NCBI GenBank assembly: GCA_045837725.1
Contig: JBEWZL010000247.1
Location: 46,730 to 66,729, forward strand
Length of the DNA stretch: 20,000 bases
From: Vermamoeba vermiformis
Lineage: Eukaryota
Reading direction: 5' to 3'
Shown here: piece by piece, positions 1-20,000 of the stretch
Position numbering within the stretch: the first letter of the stretch is position 1
Layout of the letters: the number at the start of each line of letters is the position of its first letter
Position numbers and translations under genes: made by a program
Notes under the pieces: model-generated
Database searches by the model: none
Seen by the model: only the letters and a program-made list of their open reading frames with translations
Told to the model about the DNA's origin: nothing

Positions 1-853
1 CGCACTAATGTCTTTAATTCTCCTATAGACTCAGGTATGGTACCACTAAGCCGATTGTACGCAAGGTCGAACGCCATCAGATTTTGTAATTGGTTGATCT
101 TGTCGGAGATCGTCCCGGAAAGTTCATTGTGTGCTGCGCCGAAGTACGTGAGATTTGTTTGATAAATAGATTCTGGTATTGTTCCACTGAGTTCATTTCG
201 CGACAAATGTAATTCTTGAATTTTTTTAAGCTGTCCAAGTTCTGGTGGTATCGAGCCTGTCAATTTGTTCCCCGCTAGGAAAATGATCTCCAAGTCTGCA
301 TTTGCTGCTAGTGACGCTGGAATTGTTCCTTTTAATTGATTCGTGTTTAGCAGAAGACGCTGGAGGCGAGGAACTCCGCTAAAATCCGGTATGGTGCCAG
401 AAAATGATTGGAGGATAAATAAATATAAAATAAATTCGGTAAATTAATCCATGTTGGTATTATTCCACTAAGCTGATTTCCACCAAACCAGAGTCGTTGA
501 AGCATTGACAAATTTTTGATCGACTCGGGTAATGTTCCCGATAAGTGGTTGCCTTCTAAATTGATAACGTCAAGCATCAATAAATTGCCAATTGATTCTG
601 GAAGCGTTCCAGTCAGTTGGTTGCTTGGCAGAATGAGCTGGACGACGCGCGAGTTGATGCACGCGATCCCCGCCCAATAACAAGCTGAAACATTGTTTGA
701 AAGCCAATTATCTGATCGAAGCCAATATTGTCCATTTGTGGAGTGGTAAAGTTGAGTTAATATTGCACGCTCTTCCTCTTGTGGATCGCATCGTGCGCAA
801 TTTGTCAAAAATAAAACAAATACTACCAACACACGTTTAAATGATGCGTTCAT
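1..853 (-). pseudogene. 5' part of an LRR receptor(-kinase) paralog with a 1-bp frameshift at ~404/405; runs off the window's left edge (pseudogene or assembly error)
   Basis: ATG at 853 gives a signal peptide (MNASFKRVLVVFVLFLTNCARC), an LRRNT cap (W..C.W.GI.C) and LRRs nearly identical to the gene starting at 5629. It reads AAT CA TTT TCT GGC where the paralog has AAT CAA TTT ACG GGC. After the missing base the shifted frame stays open and LRR-coding (GTIPDFSGVPRLQRLLLNTNQLKGTIPASLAAN...) to position 1. Confidence 0.75.
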
Positions 854-1169
854 CTTGCAGTCATGCTTATGGTATCTGTAATGAAGATCGTTACAAACGA
901 AGAATGATTGAGAGGATATGTGACAGGTATTCGAGGCAATCACAACGTTTTACGTTTGACACCATTTTAAATCTAAGCAAGCTTCCTGAACAATCTCAAA
1001 GTCGTAACGAACCAATTTTTTAAGGAAAAAATGCCTCAATTGGCTATTTGTGACTTATGACGATAAAGAACAAATAATTTTGCACGAATTGCATTGGTTG
1101 TTCACTTTTTAAGTCCCAGATCTACGATTACTATGATGCAATTAAACAATATTATGATGTTTTTTTGCC

Positions 1170-4100
1170 TTATTTGGTGCTCAAATACACAGTTTCAATA
1201 GTTTTTACGACTTCACCAATGAGTGGTCTGTCGTTCGGTTCTTGCGCCCAACACTGCGAAATCAACTTGCTAATTTGATGCGGGCAGTCTTGCGGCACGG
1301 CCATTCTTTTGCCTTGCAGAACAAATTCAGCCACGTCCCAGCTGTACTTGAACTCTTTGTATGGCTCATCTTGTGTTATAATGGCCCAGAGCAACACGCC
1401 GAAACTGAAAATATCTGCGCTTCGGGCGTAATTTTCATTCTTCAATATTTCTACAGAAGCCAAAATTAGAAAAATTTAAAACTATTCGTGAAAAAGCCGT
1501 AAATGAATGCTCAGAAAAGAAAAATATTGCCAAAGATAAGTGTACGTGCCTACGGCCATAAAGATGGGTGTTCCAACGCCCTTTGTGAACTTCGAAGTGA
1601 CCGAATCTGACACTGATCGTGCAGTACCAAAGTCTGCAAGTTTGACATTGACAATGGCGTCTTTTGAAGTTGACACTACCAATGCATTTTCAGGCTTAAT
1701 ATCGCGGTGTAAAATATTGTTCAAGTGCAAGAACTTCAGCGCTTCAGCAATGTCTAGTGCCAACTTAAGCTTGAACTTCATATCTAACTGTTGCTTTTGC
1801 AATAAATGTTTCAAATCTCCGTTGGTGATAAACTCGGTCAAAATCGCTCTTTTGCCTGTGACTCGTGACGCACCGATGAACTGCACGATAGATTTGTGAT
1901 GCAAATTCATCATCATGCGCACTTCTTGCTCGAACTCACGTGTAATCTCCTCGCCGAGATCTTGCATCTAAATTAGGAAAAAAATTAGTACCGTGAAAAT
2001 TCGAGTTTTGCGAGTGCCTTACTTTGAGCGTCTTAAACGCAACTCGTTGACCACGATACATCGCCTTATAAACAGCACCAAATCTACTCGTCGTTAGTAA
2101 CGCTATATAATATGAATCAATAAGCTACTCACCCTCCTTCGCCAATCGCATCGCCTTCAACTTGCACCTCGTCAACATCGATCCATGGCGAGTGTTCGCT
2201 TGCTGCATCGAATTCAATCAGCGAATAGATTTCTTCTTCAGGCAGCTCTATCCAGAATGACACTTGACACTTTGTTGTCATTTTCATTGTCAGCACAAGT
2301 TCGACTTCGGTACTTCCGCCGTCAGGCACTTCGAACACTTGTGGTGTTGCAATGAGGTCGTATTTGGGTGATATAATTGGTCTGATTTGCACGACAGTGC
2401 GGTGCTGTACGAGTTTGTCGTAAAGAGATCCGACGCTGATCACTTTGGACTTGCGTAGTGACACGGTAAAGCTGTCCCTGACCGGGTGATCAACAATCAA
2501 CAGATCACCTTTCGTGCCAAATTTGAAACTCGTCTTTGACAGCTTGATCGGCAAGTCATCAGGCAGTTTGAACTTGAACTCTTCTGGTGGCGCTGAGTTG
2601 TTTTTGACATGTGACGCTGACAGTGTCAACATTTCGACACGTGATTTGAGTTGGTCTTCTCGTTTTCTTCGCGCACTCATAGTAACTATGAGCAAGATCA
2701 TGGCTGCAATAAGAAGTATGCCAAGCGGTACTGTCAAGCCAACCACTAACGCTATTGACGTCTTGTCTTGTGGACAGCTCAACGTGAATGTGATTGTTTT
2801 GGAGACGGATCTGATGGACGGTGAATGGCAGGTACGTCCTTCACTCGATATCTTCATCATAGAATCAAAATTACTGCCGCCACATGTTGTCGTGATGTAA
2901 AACACTGGTGTCTCTACTTCTGACTCGGCCATGTCGAACACAATCTCGCCTTCAAATTGCATGCAATCAATGACCAGAGTGTCTTTGTTGCGTACCACGA
3001 GCGTGGCGTTAGGTTCAACAATCAAATCTGAATAAACGAAGGAACTTTAGTCCGTGATCGGATCAGATTCGCAATAATTGGTTGGACTTACTATGAAACG
3101 CCACCAAGTTATGTATATCCGATAGTCTTAATGTTGTTCCTGAATGTACATAAAGCGTTGACTTGGCAGGACAATAAGCTGTTGTTTGACGGTTAGTACC
3201 AAAAAAGACAGATCGGATGCGTAGATTCAGTACGTACAGTCGTAGCACTTGAACTCTTCTGTAGAGCAACAAAACGCGTTTCCATCAATATTACATTGGC
3301 TGGCTTCACTTTTGAAGGTCGAAGGTAGCGCCAAACATCCGCGAAACAAATTGTCTTGGATGTGGAGCTGTTGAAGTGTTCTCATATTGTTCATCGCTGG
3401 CAACGTGCCAGTAAACCAATTCGAAGAAATATTACTTAAATATCGTTAGTTTGACGCTAGTAGCGTTTGTAGTATTACTTACAGTTTTCTCAAATTTTGC
3501 ATCGAAGTGATTCCGTGCCCTATTGTACCATTCAAGTTGTTGTTAGACAAGTCCCTAAATAATAATATACGTTAGTATGTGTAGCTCAATGCGATATCTC
3601 CAACGTACAGCTCGGCTAGAGGCAGTTCGAAAAGTTCGACTGGGATCGTGCCAGCGAGGTCATTGTTGGCCATGTGCAGCTCTTGCAAGCGAAACAATCG
3701 AGACAGCGTTGACGGAAGTGTGCCACTGAACGCGTTGTTGTCAATTTGCACGTAGTTTAGAGAACTCAATTGTCCAAATGACTCCGGAATCGTGCCGCTG
3801 AATCGATTGTTGTCGATCTTTAAAATTCGTAGTAGACCTCTTGTAGTCAATCCTGGCGGGATAGTTCCGATGAACTTGTTGTCACTTAAGTATAGTTCAG
3901 CAATAGTGTTGGTCAAATCAAATAAATGCAACACAGATCCGGTTAGCTGATTGTTCGACAAGTCGACAGTGCGCAATCTGTTCAGCAACCCGTAAGTGAT
4001 GGGCACGGTGCCTGTCAGTTGATTGTCATTTGCCGTGAAGTAACCAAGCCCTGAGGGTAGAAATCCGGGTGATTCGAATGAAGGCAAGGGACCCGAGAGT

Positions 4101-5629
4101 CTGTTGGCGCCAAGTGTCAGATCCGTCAATCGTCTGTTTCTTCCGAGAGCTCGAGGGATAGTACCAATCAAGTTATTGTTGTTCATTATGAGGCTAACGA
4201 TCGATGGAAGTGATCCAAATGACTCGGGAATGACACCGCTGATGCGATTGTGTGCCACTGCGAAGGTCGTTAAAGACGCCATGCCACCAATGCTCTGTGG
4301 CAACGTGCCAGTGAGATTATTGAACACTATGTTGACGATCTGGAGTTGTTGTAGGTTTCCTATTGTGTTGGGTATAGGACCTTCCAGTTGGTTAGCGTAA
4401 GCGTGGAAAGACTGAAGTGCGGTGAGCTGTCCAATGCTCTCAGGAATTGTTCCAGAAAATCTGTTGAAGCTCAATAACAGTTGTTGAAGCTGCGTTAGCT
4501 GGCCTATATCGTTGGGTATCGTTCCTGTGAGCTCGTTATTTTCTACTTGAAGCCAGAGCAAGTTGTGCAGATTCGTGATCGAGTTCGGAAGTGTTCCGCT
4601 AAGACGGTTCCTGGACGCCAAGAAGTGCGTCAGCCCGACCATATTTCCAATATCATTTGGTATTGTGCCAGTAAGCTGATTGTCTGCGATTAAGAACTGC
4701 GTGAGTGTTGTTGTGAGCTGCGTAACAGATTTGGGGATCGTGCCGGTCAAATTGTTTGAAAGGGCTTCAAAGCGCACTAATGTCTTTAATTCTCCTATTG
4801 ACTCGGGTATTGTTCCACTAAGCTGATTGTATGCGAAGTCGAAGGCTAGAATGTTCTGAAATTGGCGAATCTTGTTGGAGATCGTGCCAGAGATTTTGTT
4901 GTGTGATATGCTAAAGATCCCAAGACTCGTTATTTGATAGATTGACTCTGGTATTGTTCCACTAAGTTCATTACGGCCCAAGAGTAATTGTTGCAGTTTG
5001 GTTAGCGTTCCTAGTTCCGCTGGGATCGAGCCAGTTAGCTTATTTCCAGCGAGAAAAATGGTGTCCAAGTAGGTGTTTGCTGCTAAAGATGCTGGTATCG
5101 TTCCTTCAAGCTGATTGGTGTTGAGATAAAGATGCTGAAGGCGCGGAAGGCCACTGAAATCCGGTATCGTGCCCGTAAATTGATTTGAGGGCAAAAATAA
5201 ATAAAATAAATTCGTTAAATTATTGATCCACGTTGGTATTGTTCCACTAAGCTGATTTCCACCAAGCCAGAGTCGTTGAAGCATTGACAAATTTTTGATC
5301 GACTCGGGAATTGTTCCCGATAAGTGGTTACCTTCTAAATTGATGAGATCGAGCATTAATAAATTTCCAATCGATTCTGGAAGTGTTCCAGTCAGTTGGT
5401 TGCTTGGCAGATTGAGCTGGACGACGCGCGAGTTGATGCACCCGATCCCCGCCCAATAGCAGGCTGAAACATTGGTTGAAAGCCAATTATCTGATCGAAG
5501 CCAATATTGTCCATTTGTGGAGTGGTAAAGTTGAGTTAATATTGCACGCTCTTCCTCTTGTGGATCGCATCGTGTCCAATTTATCAAAAATAATACTGCG
5601 ACGACCAACAAAGGTTTAGGTACTTGCAT
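1170..5629 (-). CDS. LRR transmembrane receptor kinase (signal peptide, >20 plant-type LRRs, Cys-rich stalk, TM, Entamoeba-TMK-like juxtamembrane domain, TKL-like kinase); model complement(join(1170..1450,1550..1967,2023..2083,2133..3027,3092..3178,3238..3434,3483..3554,3609..5629)), ~1343 aa
   Basis: LxxLxLxxNxLxGxIPxxIG repeats and a hydrophobic TM (IALVVGLTVPLGILLIAAMILLIV). Kinase motifs after splicing: GEGGFG, VAFK, HRDIKPEN, DFG, TKGVGTPIFMAVE, DIFSFG, CW...RP. Six GT-AG introns of 48-64 nt with CTAA branch motifs plus one GC-AG intron. Summed exon length of 4032 nt is divisible by 3. Confidence 0.9.
4773..5600. repeat. Segment homologous to 1..~830 (tandem LRR gene duplication)
   Basis: Direct nucleotide similarity, e.g. 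cgcactaatgtctttaattctcctat at both 1 and 4773; 480-800 is near-identical to 5260-5580. Confidence 0.95.
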
Positions 5630-6162
5630 CGTGCGTTTAAATAATAAGGTTGCTCAGTTTCGTCCCAATGACGAGTTTTGACGTTTGTCTGAGGACACAA
5701 TATTGCGAAGCACAAGATGGATCAAGCAACAACATTTAATACTGAGATTTATGACCAATATAGTACGTACATGTTTGAATATATCAAGAATACACAGATT
5801 AAAGTCGATTGGCGAAGTAAAGATTTCGATTTAGAAAACCCTAAATCGAATTTTTTTTTTTTCCTTAATCATTTAATTAATTATTTAATATTCAAAAGAC
5901 AAAACTTCAAGCTGCCCATTCTCCTAAACAGCTTCAGTAGATAAAACGCTTGCCGCAAAAAACACTTGCTCAACGATCGTTGTTGGTCGTGCTCTCAGAA
6001 CGGGTGCGTAGCTTCTATTTTGGTTGTGACCGTGCTCGTAGAAATAACCAAACTTTCTTTAGTTAGTTTGTCCGCTCCGCAGTGTCTTCGCGTCGAGCCG
6101 ATTTGTCCACGATTGTTCCCTCCGCACCACCAAAGAACAACAAACAAGGTGAAGTTGTTTGA

Positions 6163-9100
6163 ATGAATCCTAAAGAAGAGCCTCGTCGACTGTCTGAGTT
6201 GCAATTGATAGAAGTCGTGGACGAGCTGTGTTCCAGTCCCGGCTCTAACTGGCGTCACATCGGCCTATTTTTCGAAGAAAAGCATCGATTTAAAATATCT
6301 TACGAACTGTTGAAAGCCTACGCTCCGCAAGCCACACCGGACAGAGATCTTTGTAGGAATTTAATTGCAAACCTCATGGAACGCGGCGTCACAATAGAAG
6401 AATTTGTCACTGTGTTAGAAGACAGAAGAATAGGTCTCAACGCTCTTGCTTCTGATTTACGAAAACGATTTGGATTAAAATTGGCCCACTTTTCAGATCC
6501 GAACAGTTTAACTTCGAAACCTTTTTATTTCGAAGTCACTAATGACTTGACGCTGCAAATAGCGGGTAACGATACCATTGAAGAACTTGATGCCTTGCTG
6601 CAACAGAAGCGTCAAGTCATCATCAACAACGAGATTTCTGCGAGCGGAACAACTCTGGCTAATGTGCGTCCTATTCTTTATGACTTTAAGTGCTTATTTA
6701 ACGCCATTTATATGCAGGAGTTTTGTCGCAAAGCGAAAGGGTACACTTACGTTTTGTGGCTCGATGGTGCGGATGATACGAGGCTCCTTGCAAGTTTTCT
6801 CCGCTTGGCTGATTGGTTCAAGATTCCTATTCCAGACGTATCATCTCTTGACATTTTTGCTGCCAGTTATCTGAAACAAATATTCGATCGACTTGGCGAA
6901 AGACCGACGCTCTGGGTGTTTGATAGCTGCACATCCGTTAACGCAATGCAAAGGTTTTTTCCTACCCGGTCAGAAGCCTACCACGTAATTCTGACAGTTA
7001 AATCCATCCCTGCTGTCGAAAAGGACTTGGTAGATATTTGGCCCAAGCCAGATCTAAAATCATTTGACGAGAAATGTCTTCTCTTTGTGCGAATGATAGC
7101 TATGCTCGACAAGCCCGAATTCCCAGCAGCCATACTCTTTAACACTGACGTATTTGTACCACTTGCTAGCACAACGAAAGAAAGTGATCTACAAAAACTT
7201 CTTCAGCCATTGACCGAAAGGCAATTCGTCAGCTTCACAACAGCAAAGAACAGAACGATGATCCAAGTTAACGAGCAGTACCACCAGTTTTGTAAATCAG
7301 TTGCTTTACCTGAAGCCTTAGAAAAATGGATTGATGTGCTTGCATCGACGAACAGCAGCTTCAACGATTGGACATTTAACCAGGCGAAAGCAAACATCTT
7401 TGCAGCAATAAGTCCCTACGCTAGCAAATCTACTCAAGAAGCACCAAGATACTTGAACACAGTCGCTCAATTTCTTGGATTTTGGAATGCAACTTACAAA
7501 TTTCCACCAGATTTCTTTGTGAACTCAGCATTCAACACCATAGATCCCAACACTGTGGCACTAATCAAGGCACTTTGTGTTATTGAACAAGATCCCCACT
7601 TTGATCCATTCCCAAAGCAATCAAACACAACAAATCAGTTATTAGAGCGTTATTGCCATGCTCGACAGATTCTCTATTCGTGCAACTTTGATGATGCATA
7701 CAATGTACTCAAAAAGTGCAATGACTCTGCAGTCACAATGTTAGGCCCTTGTCATCCATTCACACTAAAGCTTGTCTACTGGTTGATCAGAACTCTGCTA
7801 TCGAAACGCCAGCTAAGAGTGGCGAAAGAAATGCTTGAAGAGAAGGTTTATGACAGCCACACCATTCTTGATTTCATTTTCTTGAAGTTTCACAAGCAGT
7901 TAGAAGACCCAACTGTAACCAAATGGATGATCTGCGTTGCTGATACCCTTCTTTATTGTGGTGAATTGGAAGAATCATACAAGATATACAAAGAGAGTCT
8001 CAAACACCAGCTCACATTTGATGTTCTGTTTGACAATTACCTGATTAGAACACTAGTTGGCTTGCTTTGTTATGAAATGGAAGTTCGATTGACCAATGCT
8101 GCACGACAGAGTGAAATCATATCAAATGGTGCAATTAGTTGGGAAGATGTAATGTTGCATGTCAAATCAACATTGGTTGAAGAGAAATTCAAAGATTTCT
8201 CCATTTCACCATATTACTACCACTTAATTGCACTATGTAATCAATATCCATATCGCATACCACCTAGGTCAGACCCAATCATCAGACACCAACTGCACTT
8301 GAAAGATCAATTCATGGAAGTGACTCTTTACAACCAATCCTTAGTAATGTGGAAAGAAGGCCCACAATACAGTGTAATCTATACACATGCATTATCAAAC
8401 TTGGACAACAATTGTCTGAAATTTCTCCAAAGACTTGCATTGGTCACGCTAGCACCACCACCAGTGCTTTTGAATTCAATTTTCAATCAAAAATGCAATC
8501 CAAGAAAGTATGATAGACTGACAGATTTGTTCAAACAAAACTTTCTCTCCAACAAGGAAAATCCAATCATTCAGTTAAAAATCAACATGTATATTCCATT
8601 ACTGAGGAGTACAATGAATGTTGAAGACGCAGTGAGATGGTGGACAAAGAAATTGAAGGCAGCAATTACATGTAAAGCCTCAAATGATCACTATCTGCAA
8701 CAAAGTGTCATATTTCATGATCTGTCTGACATTGTTAGAAATATCATGAATGATGAAGTTGCCATGGAGTTTTGGACAACACTTTTGGAGTTTCTTGTGA
8801 TTTGTAAAGAGGTGCCAGCGATTAGAGACATCAATAATTTCAAGCACACAGCCATCAAGAATCGCTTTCCAGTCCATTCAAGATTAATTGAAGGTGTTTG
8901 CCTTCGATCAATTGGCAAGTGGAAGGAAGCTGTAGAATGTTTCACAGGACAAGTGACATTACAATCCCAGAATTTCCCAGATAAGCAGAAGCTACTTCAG
9001 CTCTCTCAGTTTTTGTTAGCACGATCTTTATCAGAACCAGATGACAAAGACAATCCAAACTTGACAAAGGCCAAAAAGCTGTTTGAAAACTGTGTGGATA

Positions 9101-9672
9101 CTTGCATACATTTCAAGTACACTAGGCTGCAGTGCCTTGGATTATGCTTAACAAAACTTGGTCAATTTGAAGAAGCAAAGACTGTGCTCTTGCAATGCTA
9201 CAATGAGTGGACTAATGGTACTGACATGCACAACTACAGCCTTCTTGCTGAGACAACTTTCTACCTGGCTCAGTGCGAGAAACAAACTGCCTCTGCAAAT
9301 GCTTCACAACTGTTTACACAGTCTTTAATTTTACAATTAAGACATGATGTGCAAATGCATTTTAGAATGATTACAGCAGAGCTTATCTTAGTTTCAAGAC
9401 AGCCAAACAAGAGTGAGTTGGCTCCGATTGTGTTACTACACTCAGAGAATGAAGACCAGGTTAACATAGAAAACTTTGAAGCTCTGTATGAAGAGAAGCT
9501 ACTGACTGCAAGCTTTCAATATGCCACTGGCTGTCAATTTGTCTACTACACACCAGCAACACGTGGCAAGTTCTGTTCTTTGGTTCAAGTGCGATACAAC
9601 AACCAGACACTCGTTGTCTATTACGAAAGTGCAAACAACTTTGCAATTGCCATTGTAAACTCATCACTTTAA
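6163..9672 (+). CDS. NLR-like protein: N-terminal Death-like domain, degenerate NB-ARC/STAND-like domain, winged helix and TPR region (1169 aa, intronless)
   Basis: The N-terminal ~95 aa are shared with the genes at 12678, 14384 and 15936 (W..IGL.F...Y...D..LC...L.E.G.TI.E....LED.RIGL..LA..LR). NB-ARC-like motifs: YTYVLWLDG, LLASFLRLA, TLWVFD (Walker B-like), FFP...HVILT. Winged helix-like LLFVRMIAMLDKPEFPAAIL. Kinesin-light-chain-type TPR motif LGPCHPFTL and further TPR-like helices (LGLCLTKLGQFEEAK). Confidence 0.8.
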   Translation: MNPKEEPRRLSELQLIEVVDELCSSPGSNWRHIGLFFEEKHRFKISYELLKAYAPQATPDRDLCRNLIANLMERGVTIEEFVTVLEDRRIGLNALASDLRKRFGLKLAHFSDPNSLTSKPFYFEVTNDLTLQIAGNDTIEELDALLQQKRQVIINNEISASGTTLANVRPILYDFKCLFNAIYMQEFCRKAKGYTYVLWLDGADDTRLLASFLRLADWFKIPIPDVSSLDIFAASYLKQIFDRLGERPTLWVFDSCTSVNAMQRFFPTRSEAYHVILTVKSIPAVEKDLVDIWPKPDLKSFDEKCLLFVRMIAMLDKPEFPAAILFNTDVFVPLASTTKESDLQKLLQPLTERQFVSFTTAKNRTMIQVNEQYHQFCKSVALPEALEKWIDVLASTNSSFNDWTFNQAKANIFAAISPYASKSTQEAPRYLNTVAQFLGFWNATYKFPPDFFVNSAFNTIDPNTVALIKALCVIEQDPHFDPFPKQSNTTNQLLERYCHARQILYSCNFDDAYNVLKKCNDSAVTMLGPCHPFTLKLVYWLIRTLLSKRQLRVAKEMLEEKVYDSHTILDFIFLKFHKQLEDPTVTKWMICVADTLLYCGELEESYKIYKESLKHQLTFDVLFDNYLIRTLVGLLCYEMEVRLTNAARQSEIISNGAISWEDVMLHVKSTLVEEKFKDFSISPYYYHLIALCNQYPYRIPPRSDPIIRHQLHLKDQFMEVTLYNQSLVMWKEGPQYSVIYTHALSNLDNNCLKFLQRLALVTLAPPPVLLNSIFNQKCNPRKYDRLTDLFKQNFLSNKENPIIQLKINMYIPLLRSTMNVEDAVRWWTKKLKAAITCKASNDHYLQQSVIFHDLSDIVRNIMNDEVAMEFWTTLLEFLVICKEVPAIRDINNFKHTAIKNRFPVHSRLIEGVCLRSIGKWKEAVECFTGQVTLQSQNFPDKQKLLQLSQFLLARSLSEPDDKDNPNLTKAKKLFENCVDTCIHFKYTRLQCLGLCLTKLGQFEEAKTVLLQCYNEWTNGTDMHNYSLLAETTFYLAQCEKQTASANASQLFTQSLILQLRHDVQMHFRMITAELILVSRQPNKSELAPIVLLHSENEDQVNIENFEALYEEKLLTASFQYATGCQFVYYTPATRGKFCSLVQVRYNNQTLVVYYESANNFAIAIVNSSL

Positions 9673-10750: not shown

Positions 10751-12677
10751 GATACTATCAAATCAATTCGTTTGCGCATGATTGTGTTCAGTTATTGAAT
10801 TAACTGTGGCTCGCGATCCGACTCGAATTTGGTCCGCGATCTCAGATGGCTCAGCTTAATCCTAGAATACTTCGTTAGAATATTGATGAAAAGATCATAA
10901 TACGTGCCATTAGTAGCAGATGATGTGCCAAAGAGTACCGTTAGTCAACGTTGTTAGGATCTAACTCCGTTGATTTCGGCAAACGAGTTTCCTTCTCGAA
11001 TAACTTTCCTTGCTTAAGCTGTGCTTATTCCGATTGAATGCCCATCTTGCTGATGAACTCAGTCTTATTGACGTTGCTGCTCCAAAGAAGTTGTCGGTTC
11101 TGGTGATCGCGGATGCGTTCAATGCCTGGTGCGAAGAGTCTCTTCCTGTTAACAATACACTTCATATTGCAAGAAGAGGCCTCTAGATCGTTGGGGCGTT
11201 TGTCCAAGTACTGACAGATGAGATGATTGGTCTACTTAGGGCAGCCAAATCAATTGGCCATGCCACAATGATACGTGCCAAATAAATTACGTAGTATTCT
11301 TTCTGCTCGTGCAATTTACGTGTTTCTTTAAGCATCAACTTTGCTAATGTCGATAGTTAGATAAGTATCAGTTTATGACCATATTTAAAGTTTGTCTGTC
11401 TGTCTTACCTCGTGCCAGATTGCTGATGCTTTCAGAAACGAGATATAGGCACAACTTGCCGCGGCGATCAATAACAACCTGAAATTAGTTCGTTAAAAGG
11501 TGGATTAGATCCCGGAATAATGTTTTTCATTTCAGTCAATGAATGTACCTCAAAAGGCTGCAGTATTATACATTTAATTTTAAAAAAAATTACGGCTTCT
11601 TGCAAATTAGGAGCCAAAATAAAACTGACGAGCTCCCAAATCCTGCATCGATATTAAACGGATCGGCAAGCGGACACTGGAAGCCTTCGCAAAAAATATT
11701 ATTAATTTATGGTAATAATATTACTAGGAGTAAGTTTCAAATCGCAAAAGTCTAGAGATGAGATGAAAAACTCGTTATTTGACCTTACCTTACGCAAACG
11801 AAAATATTGCTAGTATATAATTAAAGCAAGCAAGTTTTTGCCGTCCTCCATAGTGTTGAAAATGCTAAATGTCTTTCTGGCTCTAAACACTGATCTGGAA
11901 ACTTTTCGCGGTTGGAACGTCCAACACAGGGATCAACACCACCCGCTTGCAATTTAACAATTTAAGCTACGTAGTTCAATTTTTAATTATTGAAGAGCCT
12001 GGACAAGCTCGATGCGTGGCAACCGTTGCTTGCACAAAGTAGTCATGACTACCCAAGGTTCAGTAGGTGTTTCGCACCCACGCGAAATACAATCTAAGAG
12101 CGTATGTATAAATAAGCATATTTCTAATTTTGGTTTAGTCGAGCCAAGTTCTATAATATTATAGAAAAATTATTTAATATTTTATTCTAATTAATTGAAA
12201 CCAGTTATGGCGATGAACTATCCCATAAATCCCATCCGAATTAACAATAAAGATTGGTGAAGATTAAGACTAAATTTGGACCCGGGAACCCGAAACTCAA
12301 TCACATCCCACGCTGACCGACGAGATCCAATGCTGAAAATAGATAGTTTGTGACGAACCTCGCTAAGAGCATTCAAGTGCAATAGGGAGTTAACAATTAG
12401 TACAAGTGGAAAGAAGAAGCATCGCGATCCCAGGCAAAATTCCGCGTGTCAATCACAAAAGTCGGCACAAGCAGAAATACCGTATATAAGGTACAATTCG
12501 CGGCAAAATGCACACCAATATACTGGTACTAATGCTTGGCAGCGTTATTGAAGCTAAAATGAAGTTTTGAGTTGAAGCGGAATAACTTGGGACCCAAGTG
12601 CTCAATTTAATCGTTAATTAATTCTATCGTCAACTTTTGAAGCAACAACCACAAGTGTGATAGTTTAGAGGTTAACA

Positions 12678-14028
12678 ATGTCGATTGTAATCGCCGAAGA
12701 TGGTACGTACGCATCTGTTACTGCTCGGGCTGACTAGCGTTTATTTAGAGTATCTTGCAAACTTGCCAGGCACTGCCGTTACAGAAATGGCCAGTGAGAT
12801 TGGTTACAAAGATGGATGGAAAAAAATTGGCTTGCACTTTCAACCAGAAGTCAAGTACGAAATCTTGACAAAACAACATCCGCATCTGATGTTTAATGGC
12901 GGCGACATCGCTTACTGCAAAGTAATGATCGACGAAATTGCAAAACAAAATGTGACAATGGGTCAATTTCTGAAAGTTGTGGATGAGGTTGGCCTCAAAT
13001 CCTCTGCGCATAATTTTCGACAAAAATATGTTCTAAAACCGTAAGCGAATAACCTCAAACAATTTTTTAAACTCATCTCTAATCATTTTGATAGGGGCCA
13101 TGCTCGGGCACATCCGCCTCCACCAAACAACAATAACAATGCTCCCGGTCCAGCCCTGCAAGCACCCGAAGTCAAGGAGCCTGACTTTACAAAAGAAGAG
13201 TGGTACGTGAATAAGAACCCATTGATTCGTAGCGTGTCAAACGAAGAGTTCGCCGAGCTCCAAACTGTGCCAGTCGCGATCTTCGTTGTCAACGACATTG
13301 AAAGAAACGCCGTTCTGCGTGACTTCAATCCTCTTCAAGGCAAGGAGTGCTTGGTCAGAGTCAAGAGAAGCGGCCAGTACTACATTGTAGGTCGCTTTGG
13401 AAACTACAACGCAGTTCTCGTTCAAACAGACATGGGCGGAGATTCTGTGCTGTCATTTGACCGAACTATTTCAGACTGGCAATGCAAGATATTAATTGCC
13501 ATTGGCGTTGCCTGGGGAAGCGATCCAAATAGACAAAAACTCGGCGATGTGCTTGTTGCCAAGGAGGTCGCAGTGTACGGTGACAACGACAAGGTGCAGA
13601 ACGGAACGTACAACATTCGTTCACACATCCCCAAGGCCGGCACCAACATCTTGAAGAGCTTGAAGGAGTACCAAGGCGATTGGGAATTCAAGTACGACAA
13701 CAAAAAGTCAAAGGTTCATATTGGTCGAATCATCTCCGCTGGCTTGTTGGTGAATGATCAGGCAATGAAGACGCAACTTCTCCAAATTCCTCAGCACGAA
13801 TTAGTCGACATCATTGGAGGCGACATGGAGGCCAAGGCACTTGCTCACGTCGTTGCTGAAAACAACCTCAAGGTCCAAGAGTGGGTCATGGTGAAGGGTA
13901 TTTGCGACTGGGCTGATGGCAACAAGCACAAGGGATACCAGCCACTTGCTGCCGCTGCTGCCTCAGACTTCGTGAAGTTTGTTCTCTCTCAGCCAGACGT
14001 GTTAGACGATATCATTCACCCGAAATAA
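12678..14028 (+). CDS. Death-like domain (subtype B) fused to a PNP_UDP_1 nucleoside phosphorylase/nucleosidase; join(12678..12702,12749..13040,13095..14028), 416 aa
   Basis: Introns GTACGT..TTTAG (46 nt) and GTAAGC..TGATAG (54 nt) join the two track ORFs in frame (1251 nt total), via a Pro/Asn-rich linker. PNP-family motifs: IGVAWG..QKLGDVLVA, VHIGRIISAG, GGDMEA, KGICDWADGNK..YQPLAAAAA. Confidence 0.9.
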
Positions 14029-14383
14029 TAGAAAAGAACACGAGTTAGTGCACACTAAATAAATAAATTCATTCTAGAATATCTGCACAATTCTCCGCCG
14101 ATAAATTTAAGTCATTACCCTTGCAACTTGCAAGGCAATTATTAACCTACGCATATATTTACTTTCTTTACAACCATAATATAAGAATAGCAAAACCAAC
14201 AATTTATAGCGGAACAACTACAAAAACTAGCTAGATGTCACTATCGTCACTTGATTGAAAGCGGCGCAAGATACAAACACAATCGCAGCGTTACAATAGA
14301 AAGGCAGAAATTTTCTCTGGTCTGAACGGTCAAGCTTTTCGGGTAGTTCCGTAGCAACTCAAGCGTATTATTTCTAGTTTCAG

Positions 14384-15175
14384 ATGGCAAAATTCCTTTC
14401 AGAAGTACCGCATCTGGACCTCGACATAATTGCCGAAAAATGCTCTACTGGCGAATGGAAGCGGATTGGTCTCAGTTTTGAGAAAACACACGGCTTTGTC
14501 ATTAAATATAACCAGCTGAAAGCCAAGCACTTGCACGCTGACGACGAAACCTTGTGCAAAGAAATGTTTGCTGAATTGGCTAATAGAGCAATTAAAATTA
14601 AGCAACTTGTGTCCGTTCTTGAAGACTCGCGGATAGGTCTGTCCTCCGTGGCGGGATATCTCCGTAAACTTATGAAGAAGAGCCAAGAAGATGAAGAGAG
14701 TGATGACGAAGATGAGGATGAAGACGAAGATAGTGATGAAGAAGACGATGATGAGGAAGAAGAAGACTCCACCGATATCGACGATGTTGCGGAGTTTCTG
14801 GCGCTAAAATACTTGTCAAAGAAAAGAGCCCGAAAGGAAGAAAGCGACGAAGATGAGCCGCCAAAAAAAAAGAAAAAAACCGGCTCGATAAGCACAACCA
14901 AATTAGTGAAGTTGCTAAATCACCTCACCAAAGATGAAGTCTCCGCAATATATGAGGCCAGCAATAAGAACAACAGCGCTGGAAGAAGTTCGAAAGGAGA
15001 GCTGATTGATTTGATTGAACTCGAAGTCACCACCGCACAAAAGTTAAAAAGAGTGTTATTGGAGGCTCTTTACAGAGATTCGTTGGTAGACTACGCTCGC
15101 CACATCGGTGTAGGTACGGCAAAAATGAAAGCAGGCGAAGCTGCTGACGCAATTGTTGCCCATTGCAAAACGTGA
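14384..15175 (+). CDS. Death-like domain (subtype A), acidic tract, NLS and two putative helix-extended-helix (SAP/Rho_N-like) repeats, 263 aa
   Basis: aa 1-97 align with the 6163 and 15936 N-termini (WKRIGLSFEKTH...LEDSRIGL). Followed by a D/E tract, basic motifs KKRARK and PPKKKKK, and C-terminal LNHLTKDEV..I....SSKGELIDLI and LEALYRDSLVDYARHIGVGTAKMKAGEAADAI. Confidence 0.85.
   Translation: MAKFLSEVPHLDLDIIAEKCSTGEWKRIGLSFEKTHGFVIKYNQLKAKHLHADDETLCKEMFAELANRAIKIKQLVSVLEDSRIGLSSVAGYLRKLMKKSQEDEESDDEDEDEDEDSDEEDDDEEEEDSTDIDDVAEFLALKYLSKKRARKEESDEDEPPKKKKKTGSISTTKLVKLLNHLTKDEVSAIYEASNKNNSAGRSSKGELIDLIELEVTTAQKLKRVLLEALYRDSLVDYARHIGVGTAKMKAGEAADAIVAHCKT
14686..14790 (+). repeat. Low-complexity GAW/GAN codon tract encoding poly-Asp/Glu
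   Basis: gaagatgaagagagtgatgacgaagatgaggatgaagacgaagat... inside the 14384 CDS. Confidence 0.8.
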
Positions 15176-15935: not shown

Positions 15936-18144
15936 ATGACGGAAGCTCGAGCTGAGTCACTTTCAGAACTTCTGGATATTGACCTGGAAGAAATTGCCGA
16001 TCAATGCTTGGGTGGCAATTGGCAACGCATTGGTATTTACTTTCAGAAAACACACAGTGGATTCACCATTAAATACAAGGAAATTCAATCCAAGCATCCT
16101 ACCGGAACTCCCGATGATATACTTCTACGAGATATGTTTTATAAGCTGGCAGAACAAGGAATAACTATTGAAGAACTGGCGTCGGCGCTGGAAGATTCCC
16201 GGATCGGCCTCGGTTCACTCGCCAAAATACTCCGAACGACACCCTTCACAAACAAAAACAAACTACAACCTCGAGCCGACACTAAGCCAATTTCATCGCC
16301 TGCTAGAATCAATACCGATCAAACGGCACGGGCAACAGGAGATCTACTCCAAGCTCCGTTTAGACAGACTTCAACAGAAGAATATTGCGTGAAAGTACTG
16401 CTTGTTCCGAGCGACGACGAGCTCTCTTCGACCCTGGACAATATGTTGAAAAGCTTCGGACTCCAACAGCTCCATGACTGCAAGACTCACGTTGTCTGGG
16501 TTAACTCTAAGAAGACTGCGTACGAAATGCTTCGTTACGTTATCAAGTTTCTGGTTGGAGACCGGGCCTCACTATTCAGTATCAATGACGCTCTACAACA
16601 CGTGAGTGAAGTGCTGTTCTTACTTCGGAACCAACATGAGGAAGCGAAGTGGCTTACGGTCGAAGAGTTTGACACTGGTGATTTACTTTCTGATGACGTT
16701 AGATTTTGCTTTCAAATCTTGTTCGAAACTCTAAAAGAGACCCTCAAGAGCGCAATACCACACCGCGTCTATGGAGTTTGCAAGCAATCATTGGATTCAT
16801 TGAAGTACGACGCCAAACTGGCACATTGGTTTTATGATACCACACGCAAAACAACGAAACGATTCTATTGCTGCGTCAAATTAGAAGAAGTAGATCGTGA
16901 ATTGAGAGACGTTGGCAACACCACTCAATCCGCTGTAATGCAGTGCACGTCCATCCCCACAAGAAAAGAAGCGACTTCATTCAGCAGCATCAATGTCTAC
17001 CTTTCCAGTTCGCTAGTGTTGCCGATCATGCTCAAGCTACATAAACGTGACATAGCCGATGCACTCAAAAAAAAAGGTCTCACGGTGAGATCCATCCATG
17101 AAGCGTGCATTCAAGATGTCATCGAAGCGCTTGCCAACCCAAAGAACAAAGACTGCCAAGTGGAACTCGAGGCAATGATTGAACGGATGGAACGAGATCA
17201 AGTTCCGTACTCGGCTGAATCAGCAAAGTGGGTAGCGATTGCAAGCAGCTATTGTCAGCGGCTAACTTTAGTCACTTACTACAGGCTTAAAATCGAATTT
17301 AATCATGCACGCTCACTAAAGCTAAAAATAATGGAGGAATTACCTCACAATGAAGGCCCAATTGATGAGTAAGTCATACTTGTATGTCTCATACAAAGTA
17401 ACGGTTTGTTTAGACCCGTAGTGAATAACCTCAAACAATTTTTTTTAACGTATCGCTAATCATTTTGATAGGGGCCAAGCTCGGGCACACCCGACTCCAC
17501 GAAAAAACAATAACAATGCTCTAGGTCCAGCCCAGCAACCCGAAGTCAAGGAGCCTGACTTTACAAAAGAAGAGTGGTACGATAAGGAGAACCCAATAAA
17601 TCATAGCGTGCCAAAAAAAGGGTTCACCAAGTTCCCAAAAGTGCGAGTCGCAATCGCCGAAGATGGTACGTACGCATCTGTTCCTGCTCGGGCTGACGGG
17701 AATTTATTTAGAGTATCTTGCAAACTTGCCAGGCACCGCCGTGACAGAAATGGCCAATGAGATTGGTTACAAAGACGGATGGAAAGACATTGGCTTGCAC
17801 TTTCAACCAGAAGTCAAGTACGAAATCTTGACAAAACAATATCCGCATCTGATGTTTAATGGCGACATCGCTTACTGCAAAGTAATGATCGACGAAATTG
17901 CAAAACAAAATGTGACAATGGGTCAATTTCTGAAAGTTGTGGATGAGGTTGGCCTCAAATCCTCTGCACATAATTTTCGACAAAAATATGTTCGAAAACA
18001 GTAAGTCAACCTCAAAGAATTTTTAAACACATCTCTAATCATTTTGATAGGGGCCTAGCTCGGTCACATCCACCTCCACAAAACATCAATGTTGGGCGTG
18101 GCGCAATAGCTAAAGCCGGAGTTATTTTCCATACCTACAAGTAA
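15936..18144 (+). CDS. Death(A), unknown central domain, linker, Death(B) protein; proposed join(15936..17368,17472..17665,17712..18000,18051..18144), 669 aa (unspliced form ends at 17372, 478 aa)
   Basis: The 478-aa ORF's stop overlaps a perfect donor (GA|GTAAGT). The acceptor CGCTAAT..TTTGATAG at 17471 restores the frame, the three downstream exons are stop-free, and the total of 2010 nt is divisible by 3. The ORF 15936..17372 is high confidence; the splice extension is moderate. Confidence 0.65.
17414..18080 (+). repeat. Rearranged duplication of the 5' part of the Death-PNP gene (17414..17650 ~ 13037..13280; 17651..18080 ~ 12688..13125)
   Basis: Shared strings include cccgaagtcaaggagcctgactttacaaaagaagagtggtac and atcgccgaagatggtacgtacgcatctgtt; the Death(B) exon is near-identical. 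Confidence 0.92.
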
Positions 18145-18153
18145 ATACAATTT

Positions 18154-19972
18154 TTATGCAGTAGTTTGCAACTCGTGCTCCATCTGCGCAGAAGGCAGCG
18201 TGCTCTGAGTGATCATCTTGCGTTGTTTGGCAGCTTCATCTTCGTCAAAGCCTTCGAACTCGTCTTGTGGTGACTGCGCCGCCTTCATTTTGTGTACTTG
18301 CACGATCACCACGGGCACTACGACTGCTGCAACTCCGACCACGATAATCACGATCAGAACTCCTATTGATGCTCCCTAAAGCGTAATACAATGTCGTTAG
18401 TTTCACATCAAAACACCGAAGCGGAACGAAAATTTCAAATTGTTGTTCGGTAATGAACAAGTTAGTTAATGCTAATTTGATATCCATATTCGATTATATT
18501 CCTGCTGGAATGTAGCTCGACATTTCGGGTTTCAACAGCATCAAAAATCGATTCCATCAATTTAAAAGGATGTGTATTATTTTTTACGGCCATTATTGAC
18601 GACGCCGTTTATACCAATAAATTAATTGAGGCACTTCAATAAGTTATATAATACCACAAAAGTATATAACTTACCTCACCAATGCCAAACAATCCACCCG
18701 AGTTGTTATTACTGTCGCCGTTGTTCGGAGATTGAGTGCCCATGCCTGGCTGTTGAGTCGTGATCAGCACGGGATACGACAGTGCAATTGACTGCGCGTA
18801 TTGTTTGCCCAGCGAGGACCAGCAGTACGCCAATCCACCGAATGATTGTGAAACTGAAGCACTTAACGAGCACTCAAGTGTTTGTGCACTGAGATACGAC
18901 GTGTTTGTGCGAATGGTCAGTGTCACCGTGCAGTTCATGTCACGTGACAAGTTAGTGCATTCTGCTTGTGGCGTGGAGGTGATCAACAGTGATTGGTCCG
19001 AACACGTCAGATCTGCCGTGAAGTTCGCACTTGATGGACCTAAATTAAGGAGCATAATGTTACTAAATTATATTCAATAAAACTAGTATTGATAATAGAG
19101 TTTGGAATAAATCCGTTTTGAAAATGCATCCGAATCTACTACAGACGAAGATATTTTGATTGTAACGTACCACTATTACGTATCTGAGCTGTTAAGAACT
19201 TTGTAAATGCAACTTGATCACTCGTTGACCATTCAACTTGACTCCAGCCAATCAAGTTCATTGACGACAACTCCGGATCTGACTCGTGTTGTGACCACCA
19301 CTCTTTGTCCATCAGCAAGTACGACTCACTCGCAATGACATCATCGCTGTAGTCCAAGCAGTAGTTGTACGGTGCTTGCATGGTGATAGACTGCGTGAAC
19401 TGTTTGCCTTTTGAGGACCAGCAAGTGGCACGTGTCACACTCACTTGCCAGTTGCACGTGATTGACACGTTGCTCAGACCTGGCGAGCCCAAGTACAGCA
19501 CTGGCACTTGAACTGTCAACGTGGCACCAGCGTCAATGAGAACTGTCACTGAACTTCCATAAATGGAAATAGTGTTATCTCCCGTCGAGATCTGACACTG
19601 ATCGACAGTGACGTTGAACTCGCCTTGAAGATTGCCTCCGTTTTTGACTGACGATGACACTAGCACTGTGAAGTTCTGAGGATTGTTTGCTGAAGTCCAT
19701 GCGAGAGGTGTGATTGCGAACGGATTCTACGGGACGTGTTAGCATCGATACTTCCATTTATGGTAATAATGTATCGTACCTGCTGAGCAGCAAATGGATT
19801 AGGATTGACGCGCCAAACAGACTCGCTGTACACGAGGAATGGTTGACCCAATGCAGTGACTGTACTCGAGTCCGTGCAGCCGTTCTCGAGTGAGAAATCC
19901 ATCATCGATGTAACGTACTTGTTCGATGAACTCCACAACTTTTGTTGCGGAATTGAAATGAAAAAACTGCAG
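18154..19972 (-). CDS. 3' part of a type I single-pass membrane protein with two Cys-containing Ig/CARDB-like repeats; complement(join(18154..18375,18675..19062,19143..19726,19780..19972)), 5' end beyond the window
   Basis: GT-AG introns at 19727..19779, 19063..19142 and 18376..18674 join the track ORFs in frame. The repeats share N.G....F...C...C...CWSS.GKQ..QSI. TM is GASIGVLIVIIVVGVAAVVVPVVIV, followed by a short charged tail. Confidence 0.75.
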
Positions 19973-20000
19973 CTGTACAGCAAATATTAATTAGAATTGC

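Follow-up and report, generated by a model that had tools for sequence, protein, structure and literature searches.

A spliced gene of Vermamoeba vermiformis predicted to join a Death-fold domain to an effector-type PNP_UDP_1 nucleosidase

The contig JBEWZL010000247.1 of Vermamoeba vermiformis (assembly GCA_045837725.1) carries, within a stretch of 20,000 nucleotides (positions 46,730 to 66,729 of the forward strand; hereafter the window, numbered from its first letter), a candidate gene at 12678-14028 that raises two questions: whether adjacent open reading frames (ORFs) encode a single protein here, and whether the nucleosidase domain in it is a housekeeping enzyme or the enzymatic part of a Death-fold effector. 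A preliminary description, made from the letters alone, had proposed that two hidden introns conceal a fusion of a Death domain with an immune-type PNP nucleosidase that depletes ATP. The analyses presented here support this proposal in part: the spliced gene, the Death-like fold, a PNP domain distinct from the housekeeping nucleosidase MtnN and intact catalytic equivalents all found support, while the ATP-depleting role is only something that we infer.

A gene of three exons

The splice reconstruction was checked against contigs of public sequencing runs placed on 12300-14400, and contigs from three runs of three studies (X1, X2 and X4) were informative. The three contigs of run X1, all at least 99% alike, had both joints (12702|12749 and 13040|13095), exactly the two junctions proposed in the preliminary description. 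Run X2 gave three contigs, with the joint 13040|13095 and a loose end of 13 nt before 12748 that was equal to the tail of exon 1, while one of the two contigs of run X4 (90-95% alike) had both joints together with an in-frame deletion of 9 nt at 13126. In all three runs the depth was zero in the flanks 12300-12583 and 14075-14216, and coverage ended at about 12650 and about 14050. Because both introns are skipped and the intergenic flanks have zero depth, these contigs fit transcripts or cDNA. A run of raw RNA reads (X18) placed none of its 12,966,262 records on the locus and carries no weight on splicing either way. Upstream of the predicted start, an in-frame TAG lies 12 nt 5' of the ATG at 12678, and an AATAAA is found at 14058, past the stop codon.

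Two homologues showed the same arrangement in continuous form. The protein P0001 (462 amino acids, aa) is 79% identical to the product over exon 3 and 61% over exon 2, and P0017, a protein from a eukaryotic transcriptome, is 35% identical; both are continuous and colinear with the product across the two junctions, and both have a Death-like N-terminus and a PNP domain. Positions 12678-14028 are a real three-exon eukaryotic gene, expressed as judged by the transcript-like contigs, and the reconstruction and the contigs agree on the single product of 416 aa that had been proposed after removal of two short introns (Table 1). A bacterial contaminant gene was rejected as an explanation, since the introns are spliceosomal and the contigs are spliced.

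The Death-fold and nucleosidase domains

The domain encoded by exon 2 was modelled with AlphaFold2 (AF2) from an alignment of seven rows as a six-helix bundle, with a predicted local distance difference test (pLDDT) value of 93 and a predicted template modelling score (pTM) of 0.85. Comparison of the model with 48,161 PDB chains by VIA-align placed Death domains at ranks 1-14 (Z 10.8-8.2; root-mean-square deviation, rmsd, 2.3-3.4; 80-93 residues aligned). The best match was Tube of the Pelle/Tube complex (1d2z_D; Z 10.8, rmsd 2.3, 93 residues aligned), and the Death domains of IRAK2 and ankyrin-G (Z 10.2), PIDD and FADD (9.5) and Fas (8.2) were also found. The other groups ranked lower, with CARD from Z 7.7, DED from 7.1, the bacterial death-like domain 8ss1 at 5.9 and PYD at 5.8. 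The top Foldseek matches of the same model were likewise Death domains, with TM-scores by query (TMq) of 0.67-0.71, the value of 0.71 belonging to that of IRAK4. In the ESM-Atlas, the closest clusters have PF00531 (score 0.89), which was taken as a lead only. The six-helix antiparallel bundle superposes along its entire length on Death domains of known structure and is consistent by fold with the Death domain subfamily. Since all top ranks fall within a single superfamily, the match extends over the entire domain and the ESM-Atlas lead agrees, the modelled exon-2 domain very probably has the death fold, and the Death-like module (aa 10-105) would most likely serve as a homotypic adaptor. The Death domain of the preliminary description was thereby upheld by fold (AF2, VIA-align) and missed by every sequence model.

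Sequence searches with the exon-2 domain found few relatives. A phmmer search of 1.84 billion representatives returned six matches, the credible ones being P0001 and P0079. The proteins P0080-P0083, tried as Death-like relatives, were judged spurious, being repeat, TPR or Ig-like proteins. A profile search for the domain among longer proteins returned P0001 and P0017 and no others.

The translation of exon 3 matched PF01048 with 46.1 bits (cut-off 25.1) over its residues 77-289. Its structural model had a pLDDT of 87, and the best Foldseek matches were methylthioadenosine/S-adenosylhomocysteine (MTA/SAH) nucleosidases (MTANs), with an E-value of 3e-17, TM-scores by target (TMt) of 0.82-0.86 and 16-22% identity. 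Residue equivalences, taken from an alignment with the Escherichia coli Mtn of NC_000913.3, assign Glu175, Glu351 and Asp377 to the three catalytic positions of MTAN and Met350 to Met173, and all four are conserved in 77-78 of the 78 rows of the clade described below. As judged from the alignment, the acid/base machinery of MTAN (Glu175, Glu351, Asp377) is kept. The catalytic-looking motifs that had been called intact are so: the equivalents of Glu12, Glu174 and Asp197 are present, and GGDMEA (aa 347-352) and KGICDWAD...K..YQ..AA (aa 373-393) fall in columns that vary little or not at all in an alignment of 36 sequences. Compared with E. coli Mtn, the clade shows specific changes of Arg193 to Lys (78/78 rows), Ser196 to Cys (75), Val198 to Trp (76) and Gly78 to Phe or Trp. 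Upstream of the core lies a motif that is common to eukaryotic and bacterial members, and because of this the effector module seems to include an N-terminal extension.

Does this domain belong with MtnN? The target fell below the cut-offs of the MtnN equivalog models, with 47.2 bits against a cut-off of 169 for NF004079 and 24.7 against 73.8 for TIGR01704. A quick IQ-TREE phylogeny (LG+C20) was built from 83 rows, including four MtnN references, and DeoD, as the outgroup, was the sole other housekeeping reference. The target and P0001 grouped with a support of 100 inside a clade of 78 rows (SH-aLRT 99, stem 2.9), and outside it lay the four MtnN references, a small set (TIGR01704 over 31 genomes gave two MtnN above the cut-off). 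Members of the clade are fused to TIR_2, EAD-type, REC (receiver) and TPR domains, and further relatives among 19 longer matches are fused to NB-ARC with TPR, NACHT, CHAT, Ras with WD40, and reverse transcriptase. The architecture is of the immune type on both counts, the target having its own Death-fold domain and its relatives TIR_2, NB-ARC, NACHT, CHAT, TPR or WD40. These results support, at the level of sequence, a PNP domain that belongs with the effector PNPs of NLR-type (NOD-like receptor), TIR-type and CHAT-type proteins and not with housekeeping MtnN. The preliminary description had also separated the two, and clustering with MtnN, which would have spoken against it, was not seen with the four references.

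The relatives of the nucleosidase module are widespread in prokaryotes. A pattern scan of a prokaryotic species-genome collection matched 572 stretches, 521 of which encode relatives, from cyanobacteria, Chloroflexi, Planctomycetes, Acidobacteria, Myxococcales, Clostridia and one Heimdallarchaeote metagenome-assembled genome. The nearest sequence relatives of the module are bacterial (Kouleothrix, cyanobacteria and Planctomycetes; 34-36% identity). A scan of metagenome contigs found no orthologous locus, and gave 20 distant loci of at most 31% identity over long matches. Searches for Cap17-type proteins, which carry the PNP-type effector of the cyclic-oligonucleotide-based antiphage signalling system (CBASS), gave no matches to the PADLOC model PDLC00759 at E<=1e-20 in 401 genomes of one class, and a tblastn search of plasmids gave 20 records, none above 30% identity, whose annotations name hypothetical or HNH proteins and in no case Cap17. 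The model PDLC00759 itself matches E. coli K-12 Mtn through its C-terminal 76 positions. Asp377 falls in the region of the model that holds Cap17 position 472, the alignment to D472 being at the level of the region only.

Proposed function and the Death-like gene cluster

It is reasonably probable that the product is an intracellular effector of two modules, with a flexible linker connecting a Death-fold adaptor to an MTAN-fold N-glycosidase that cleaves ATP/dATP on assembly. In this mechanism, the Death-like domain would recruit the enzyme into a homotypic assembly nucleated by a neighbouring Death-like protein. A neighbouring Death-like protein of 1169 aa with TPRs could be the sensor or scaffold, and a protein that lacks the PNP domain and has a near-identical Death-like domain could be an adaptor or decoy. 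MTANs are obligate dimers with shared active sites. Proximity or dimerisation would release the activity of the C-terminal module (aa ~150-416), which most probably would remove adenine from ATP/dATP, by analogy with Cap17, DtcC and the sponge protein DDAN, and energy depletion would then lead to growth arrest or death of the affected cell. We infer the ATP/dATP substrate, the activation by oligomerisation, the partners and the role in immunity or cell death from comparison with these systems.

Several observations weigh against this interpretation. On the side of the adaptor, the pairings proposed between Death-like domains are hypothetical. Exon 2 matched no Pfam family at E<=1, Death included, and none of the seven related domains of the alignment matched the Death or bDLD families of Pfam at E<=10. 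A PDB profile search with the exon-2 domain gave nothing relevant, just PPR and triosephosphate isomerase noise; Foldseek with its model gave no match at E<=0.001, the values being 0.07 or worse; and, as the tool warns, Z values in the range 8-11 may arise in small bundles of helices from a common arrangement only. On the side of the enzyme, the 78-row clade is partly defined by the search, because its P rows were gathered by similarity to the target. The tree, from which Cap17, DtcC and DDAN are absent, does not directly test membership of the published Cap17 clade. With the Cap17-type model PDLC00759 the target scored 32.5 bits (model positions 412-491) against 37.7 for the housekeeping Mtn of E. 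coli, and because of the latter score such weak matches are no sign of an immune PNP. The RNA status of runs X1, X2 and X4 is an automatic guess. Finally, the target and P0001 have SAGL (aa 320-323, 13741-13752) where the clade has SGEK.

This last difference bears on an alternative that we consider unlikely though worth keeping in view, namely that the same architecture has another substrate that contains adenine (AMP/ADP, NAD-derived or signalling nucleotides, or MTA/SAH-like compounds) and works as a metabolic switch or signal generator. Because the target shares with MTAN the Asp that recognises adenine and the catalytic Glu residues, these imply adenine specificity only. The Lys of the clade's SGEK, which aligns with E. 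coli Ala150, is found in 67 of the 78 rows, and SAGL, a lineage-specific change close to the active site and beside the adenine-binding strand, may mean a changed substrate or regulation. Against this, the PNPs described by Rousset et al. (2023), namely those of a fungal NLR, sponge DDAN, Cap17 and DtcC, all preferred ATP or dATP.

An effector of non-immune programmed cell death, allorecognition or development, and not of pathogen defence, is quite improbable. Death-fold networks serve apoptosis, allorecognition and immunity alike (Kaur et al., 2021; PMC8195603), no feature of the window connects the cluster with a sensor of pathogens, and the 1169-aa neighbour lacks a recognisable NTPase motif. 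The TIR, NACHT, NB-ARC and CHAT architectures of the relatives, however, are those of conflict systems, and tandem duplication with chimeric paralogues fits fast-evolving immune loci, both points being circumstantial. That the product is a housekeeping MTA/SAH nucleosidase (MtnN) with an N-terminal extension is extremely improbable: although MTANs are its best solved-structure matches by sequence and fold and an MtnN model its best NCBIfam match, the scores fall far under the equivalog cut-offs, a branch of 99% support parts it from the four MtnN references, the changes of Arg193, Ser196 and Val198 are specific to its clade, and it is fused to a Death-fold domain while its relatives are fused to immune-type domains.

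The Death-fold effector proposed above would have its candidate partners close by. Among the Death-like domains of three neighbours the identity is 40-49%, and between these domains and that of the target it is 25-32%; with the target the neighbours form, as predicted from sequence, a cluster of four Death-like genes on the + strand. In the 1169-aa ORF the TPR matches are weak and below the cut-off, and a motif scan of this ORF found neither a Walker A nor any recognisable NTPase motif. One contig of run X2 covers 14266-14400, upstream of the ATG at 14384, and fits a transcribed 5' untranslated region (UTR) of the small Death-like gene there. The third neighbour, starting at 15936, is a gene model predicted from sequence alone, its last donor and stop coordinate having been read by eye; its three introns are placed at 17369-17471, 17666-17711 and 18001-18050. 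Its product would comprise a Death-like domain, a region without assignment, a linker of the target type with EPDFTKEEWY, a second Death-like domain that is 95% identical to that of the target, and a short tail, with no PNP domain.

Table 1. Features of the Death-PNP gene and its Death-like neighbours (positions in the window)
Feature	Position	Strand	Remarks
Whole gene	12678-14028	+	three exons; spliced coding sequence (CDS) of 1251 nt, 416 aa
5' UTR, minimum extent	12650-12677	+	X1 and X4 contigs start at 12650 and 12654; in-frame TAG 12666-12668
Exon 1, coding part	12678-12702	+	ATG, 8 codons plus 1 base; joint 12702|12749 (X1, X4), loose end (X2)
Intron 1	12703-12748	+	46 nt, GT..AG; GTACGT, CTGAC branch-like site, TTTAG; skipped in X1 and X4 contigs
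Exon 2	12749-13040	+	predicted Death-fold adaptor domain, six helices at ~12769-13029; AF2 model and fold search
Intron 2	13041-13094	+	54 nt, phase 2, GT..AG; GTAAGC, CTAAT, ATAG; skipped in X1, X2 and X4 contigs
Exon 3	13095-14028	+	linker, pre-core motif, PNP core
Low-complexity Pro/Asn-rich linker, start of exon 3	13095-13176	+	pLDDT 52-53 over first 20 residues; place of the 9-nt deletion of the X4 variant
Pre-core motif EPDFTKEEWY	13177-13206	+	matches bacterial consensus YxxExQxW (36-sequence alignment)
Glu175, equivalent of E. coli MTAN Glu12	13300-13302	+	Glu in 77/78 clade rows
PNP_UDP_1 (MTAN-fold) nucleosidase core	13324-13962	+	Pfam PF01048, Foldseek
Glu351 in GGDMEA, equivalent of MTAN Glu174	13828-13830	+	78/78 clade rows; PDB alignment
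Asp377 in KGICDWAD, equivalent of MTAN Asp197	13906-13908	+	78/78 clade rows
Stop codon TAA	14026-14028	+	X1 contig extends to 14050
1169-aa ORF: Death-like N-terminus, C-terminal TPRs	6163-9672	+	N-terminus 28% identical to target domain
Death-like domain, acidic/basic low-complexity region, C-terminal region	14384-15175	+	Death-like domain 32% identical to target domain
Predicted four-exon gene, Death-like start 15936-16238	15936-18144	+	sequence prediction, duplicate match

At 17369, a consensus GTAAGT donor appears to link the gene at 15936, in frame, to a duplicated segment of the target gene. This partial duplicate (17407-18090, + strand) is rearranged: target 13029-13281 corresponds to 17407-17655 (84%) and target 12689-13134 to 17652-18090 (93%), so that the tail of intron 2 with the start of exon 3 runs directly into a second piece, which reaches from the tail of exon 1 through intron 1, exon 2 and intron 2 to the start of exon 3. 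The two pieces meet where their sequences are similar over a short distance (VAIF in exon 3, VIAED in exon 1). Because the same phase-2 acceptor as that of target intron 2 is found, a linker-PNP exon moved as a cassette is suggested. In one X4 contig (contig 7, 12654-13310), 10 of the 17 differences mappable to the downstream duplicate have the base of the duplicate, which suggests that the copies have undergone gene conversion in a related strain, or else that the contig is a mosaic.

Two further regions of note lie on the - strand. Positions 1-5653 hold two tandem receptor genes, with a signal peptide, a plant-type leucine-rich repeat (LRR) cap (C.W.G..C), about 25 LRRs, a transmembrane (TM) segment and a kinase split by short introns, and such plant-type LRR-TM-kinase receptors beside Death-fold genes are unusual. 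At 18150-19986, ORFs resemble exons of a type I membrane protein that would have a single TM segment, a short acidic tail and extracellular modules that are repeated and contain Cys.

A broader reading of the locus is doubtful. It would take the locus as a compact, fast-evolving Death-fold signalling locus, in which the linker-PNP exon, with its conserved phase-2 acceptor as the point of entry, is a shuffled cassette of bacterial origin, and the PNP-less protein with two Death-like domains, the product of a tandem duplication, is a bridge or decoy. As a bridge, this protein would join the sensor-type Death domains (6163, 14384, 15936) to the effector-type Death domain, while as a decoy it would resemble cFLIP or CARD-only proteins. 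Under the same reading the lineage, with very short, fungal-style introns beside LRR receptor kinases, may be one without a described system of this kind.

Comparison with known systems

The fusion of Death and PNP domains is an architecture that has already been published, computationally in 2021 (Kaur et al., 2021) and with the ATP nucleosidase activity of DDAN in 2023 (Rousset et al., 2023), and the target gene is a further example of it. What is new here is modest and concerns the Death domain that is invisible to sequence models, the short-intron gene with support at the level of junctions, and the cluster, in which a chimeric paralogue lacks the PNP domain. The gene leaves the present view of immune PNP effectors unchanged. 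It would represent a second kind of eukaryotic Death-plus-PNP effector, beside sponge DDAN as the one biochemically studied example. Because the Death domain is too divergent for sequence models, Pfam-based surveys will undercount such proteins, and in intron-bearing genomes ORF tracks split their genes. The cluster, with its Death-like TPR protein, small Death-like protein and PNP-less paralogue, offers a small, testable set of partners for the question of how Death-fold assemblies could switch on a nucleotide-destroying enzyme.

The nearest counterpart by architecture is DDAN of Amphimedon queenslandica. Rousset et al. (2023; bioRxiv 10.1101/2023.01.24.525353) defined a Cap17-like clade and noted Death-PNP fusions in Amphimedon; according to this report, the PNP domain of DDAN cleaves only ATP and dATP, and toxicity in E. 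coli was seen for the PNP domains of Cap17, DtcC, DDAN and a fungal NLR in isolation. Sponge proteins that combine Death-like units, TRADD-N and PNPase had been described computationally by Kaur, Iyer, Burroughs and Aravind (2021; PMC8195603). The target and DDAN both have an N-terminal Death and a C-terminal PNP_UDP_1 domain in a eukaryote, assigned here by fold and by Pfam, respectively. By its published description, on which the comparison is based, DDAN is longer, with the PNP domain at residues 248-518, and the Death-like domain of the target differs in being too divergent for PF00531.

Bacterial bDLD3-PNPase fusions and tandem loci of such genes were also described by Kaur et al. (2021), and these and the EAD-PNPases, from conflict systems of multicellular bacteria, resemble the target in joining an adaptor to the same kind of PNPase. 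The bacterial proteins closest in sequence to its PNP module are of this sort and have the pre-core motif in common with it. The adaptor of the target, in contrast, is nearer to metazoan Death domains (Z 10.8-8.2) than to the bacterial 8ss1 (Z 5.9), matches no bDLD or EAD family of Pfam, and is encoded by a gene with spliceosomal introns.

Cap17 of type III CBASS and DtcC of Detocs share with the target a PNP_UDP_1 effector domain and a catalytic Asp in a C-terminal motif. This residue is D472 in Cap17, where D472A abolishes function, and D353 in DtcC (Rousset et al., 2023), and the same chemistry is proposed for the target. They differ in the sensor: Cap17 has a domain that binds cyclic oligonucleotides, and DtcC has a receiver domain. 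Among the annotated N-terminal domains of fungal NLRs, PNP_UDP is one of the four commonest, and it also occurs in coral NLRs (Dyrka et al., 2014; PMC4986451). In these proteins PNP_UDP is the NLR effector, and the bacterial relatives found here likewise include NB-ARC or NACHT with TPR or WD40; in the target, compared with the fungal NLRs by description only, the PNP domain lies at the C-terminus and is attached to a Death-fold adaptor and not to a nucleotide-binding oligomerisation (NOD) module. With MtnN and other MTANs, finally, the target shares the fold, the catalytic Glu/Glu/Asp set and the equivalent of Met173, whereas it differs in its low sequence identity, its separate clade, the changes at Arg193, Ser196, Val198 and Gly78, and the possession of an extra N-terminal segment and an adaptor domain.

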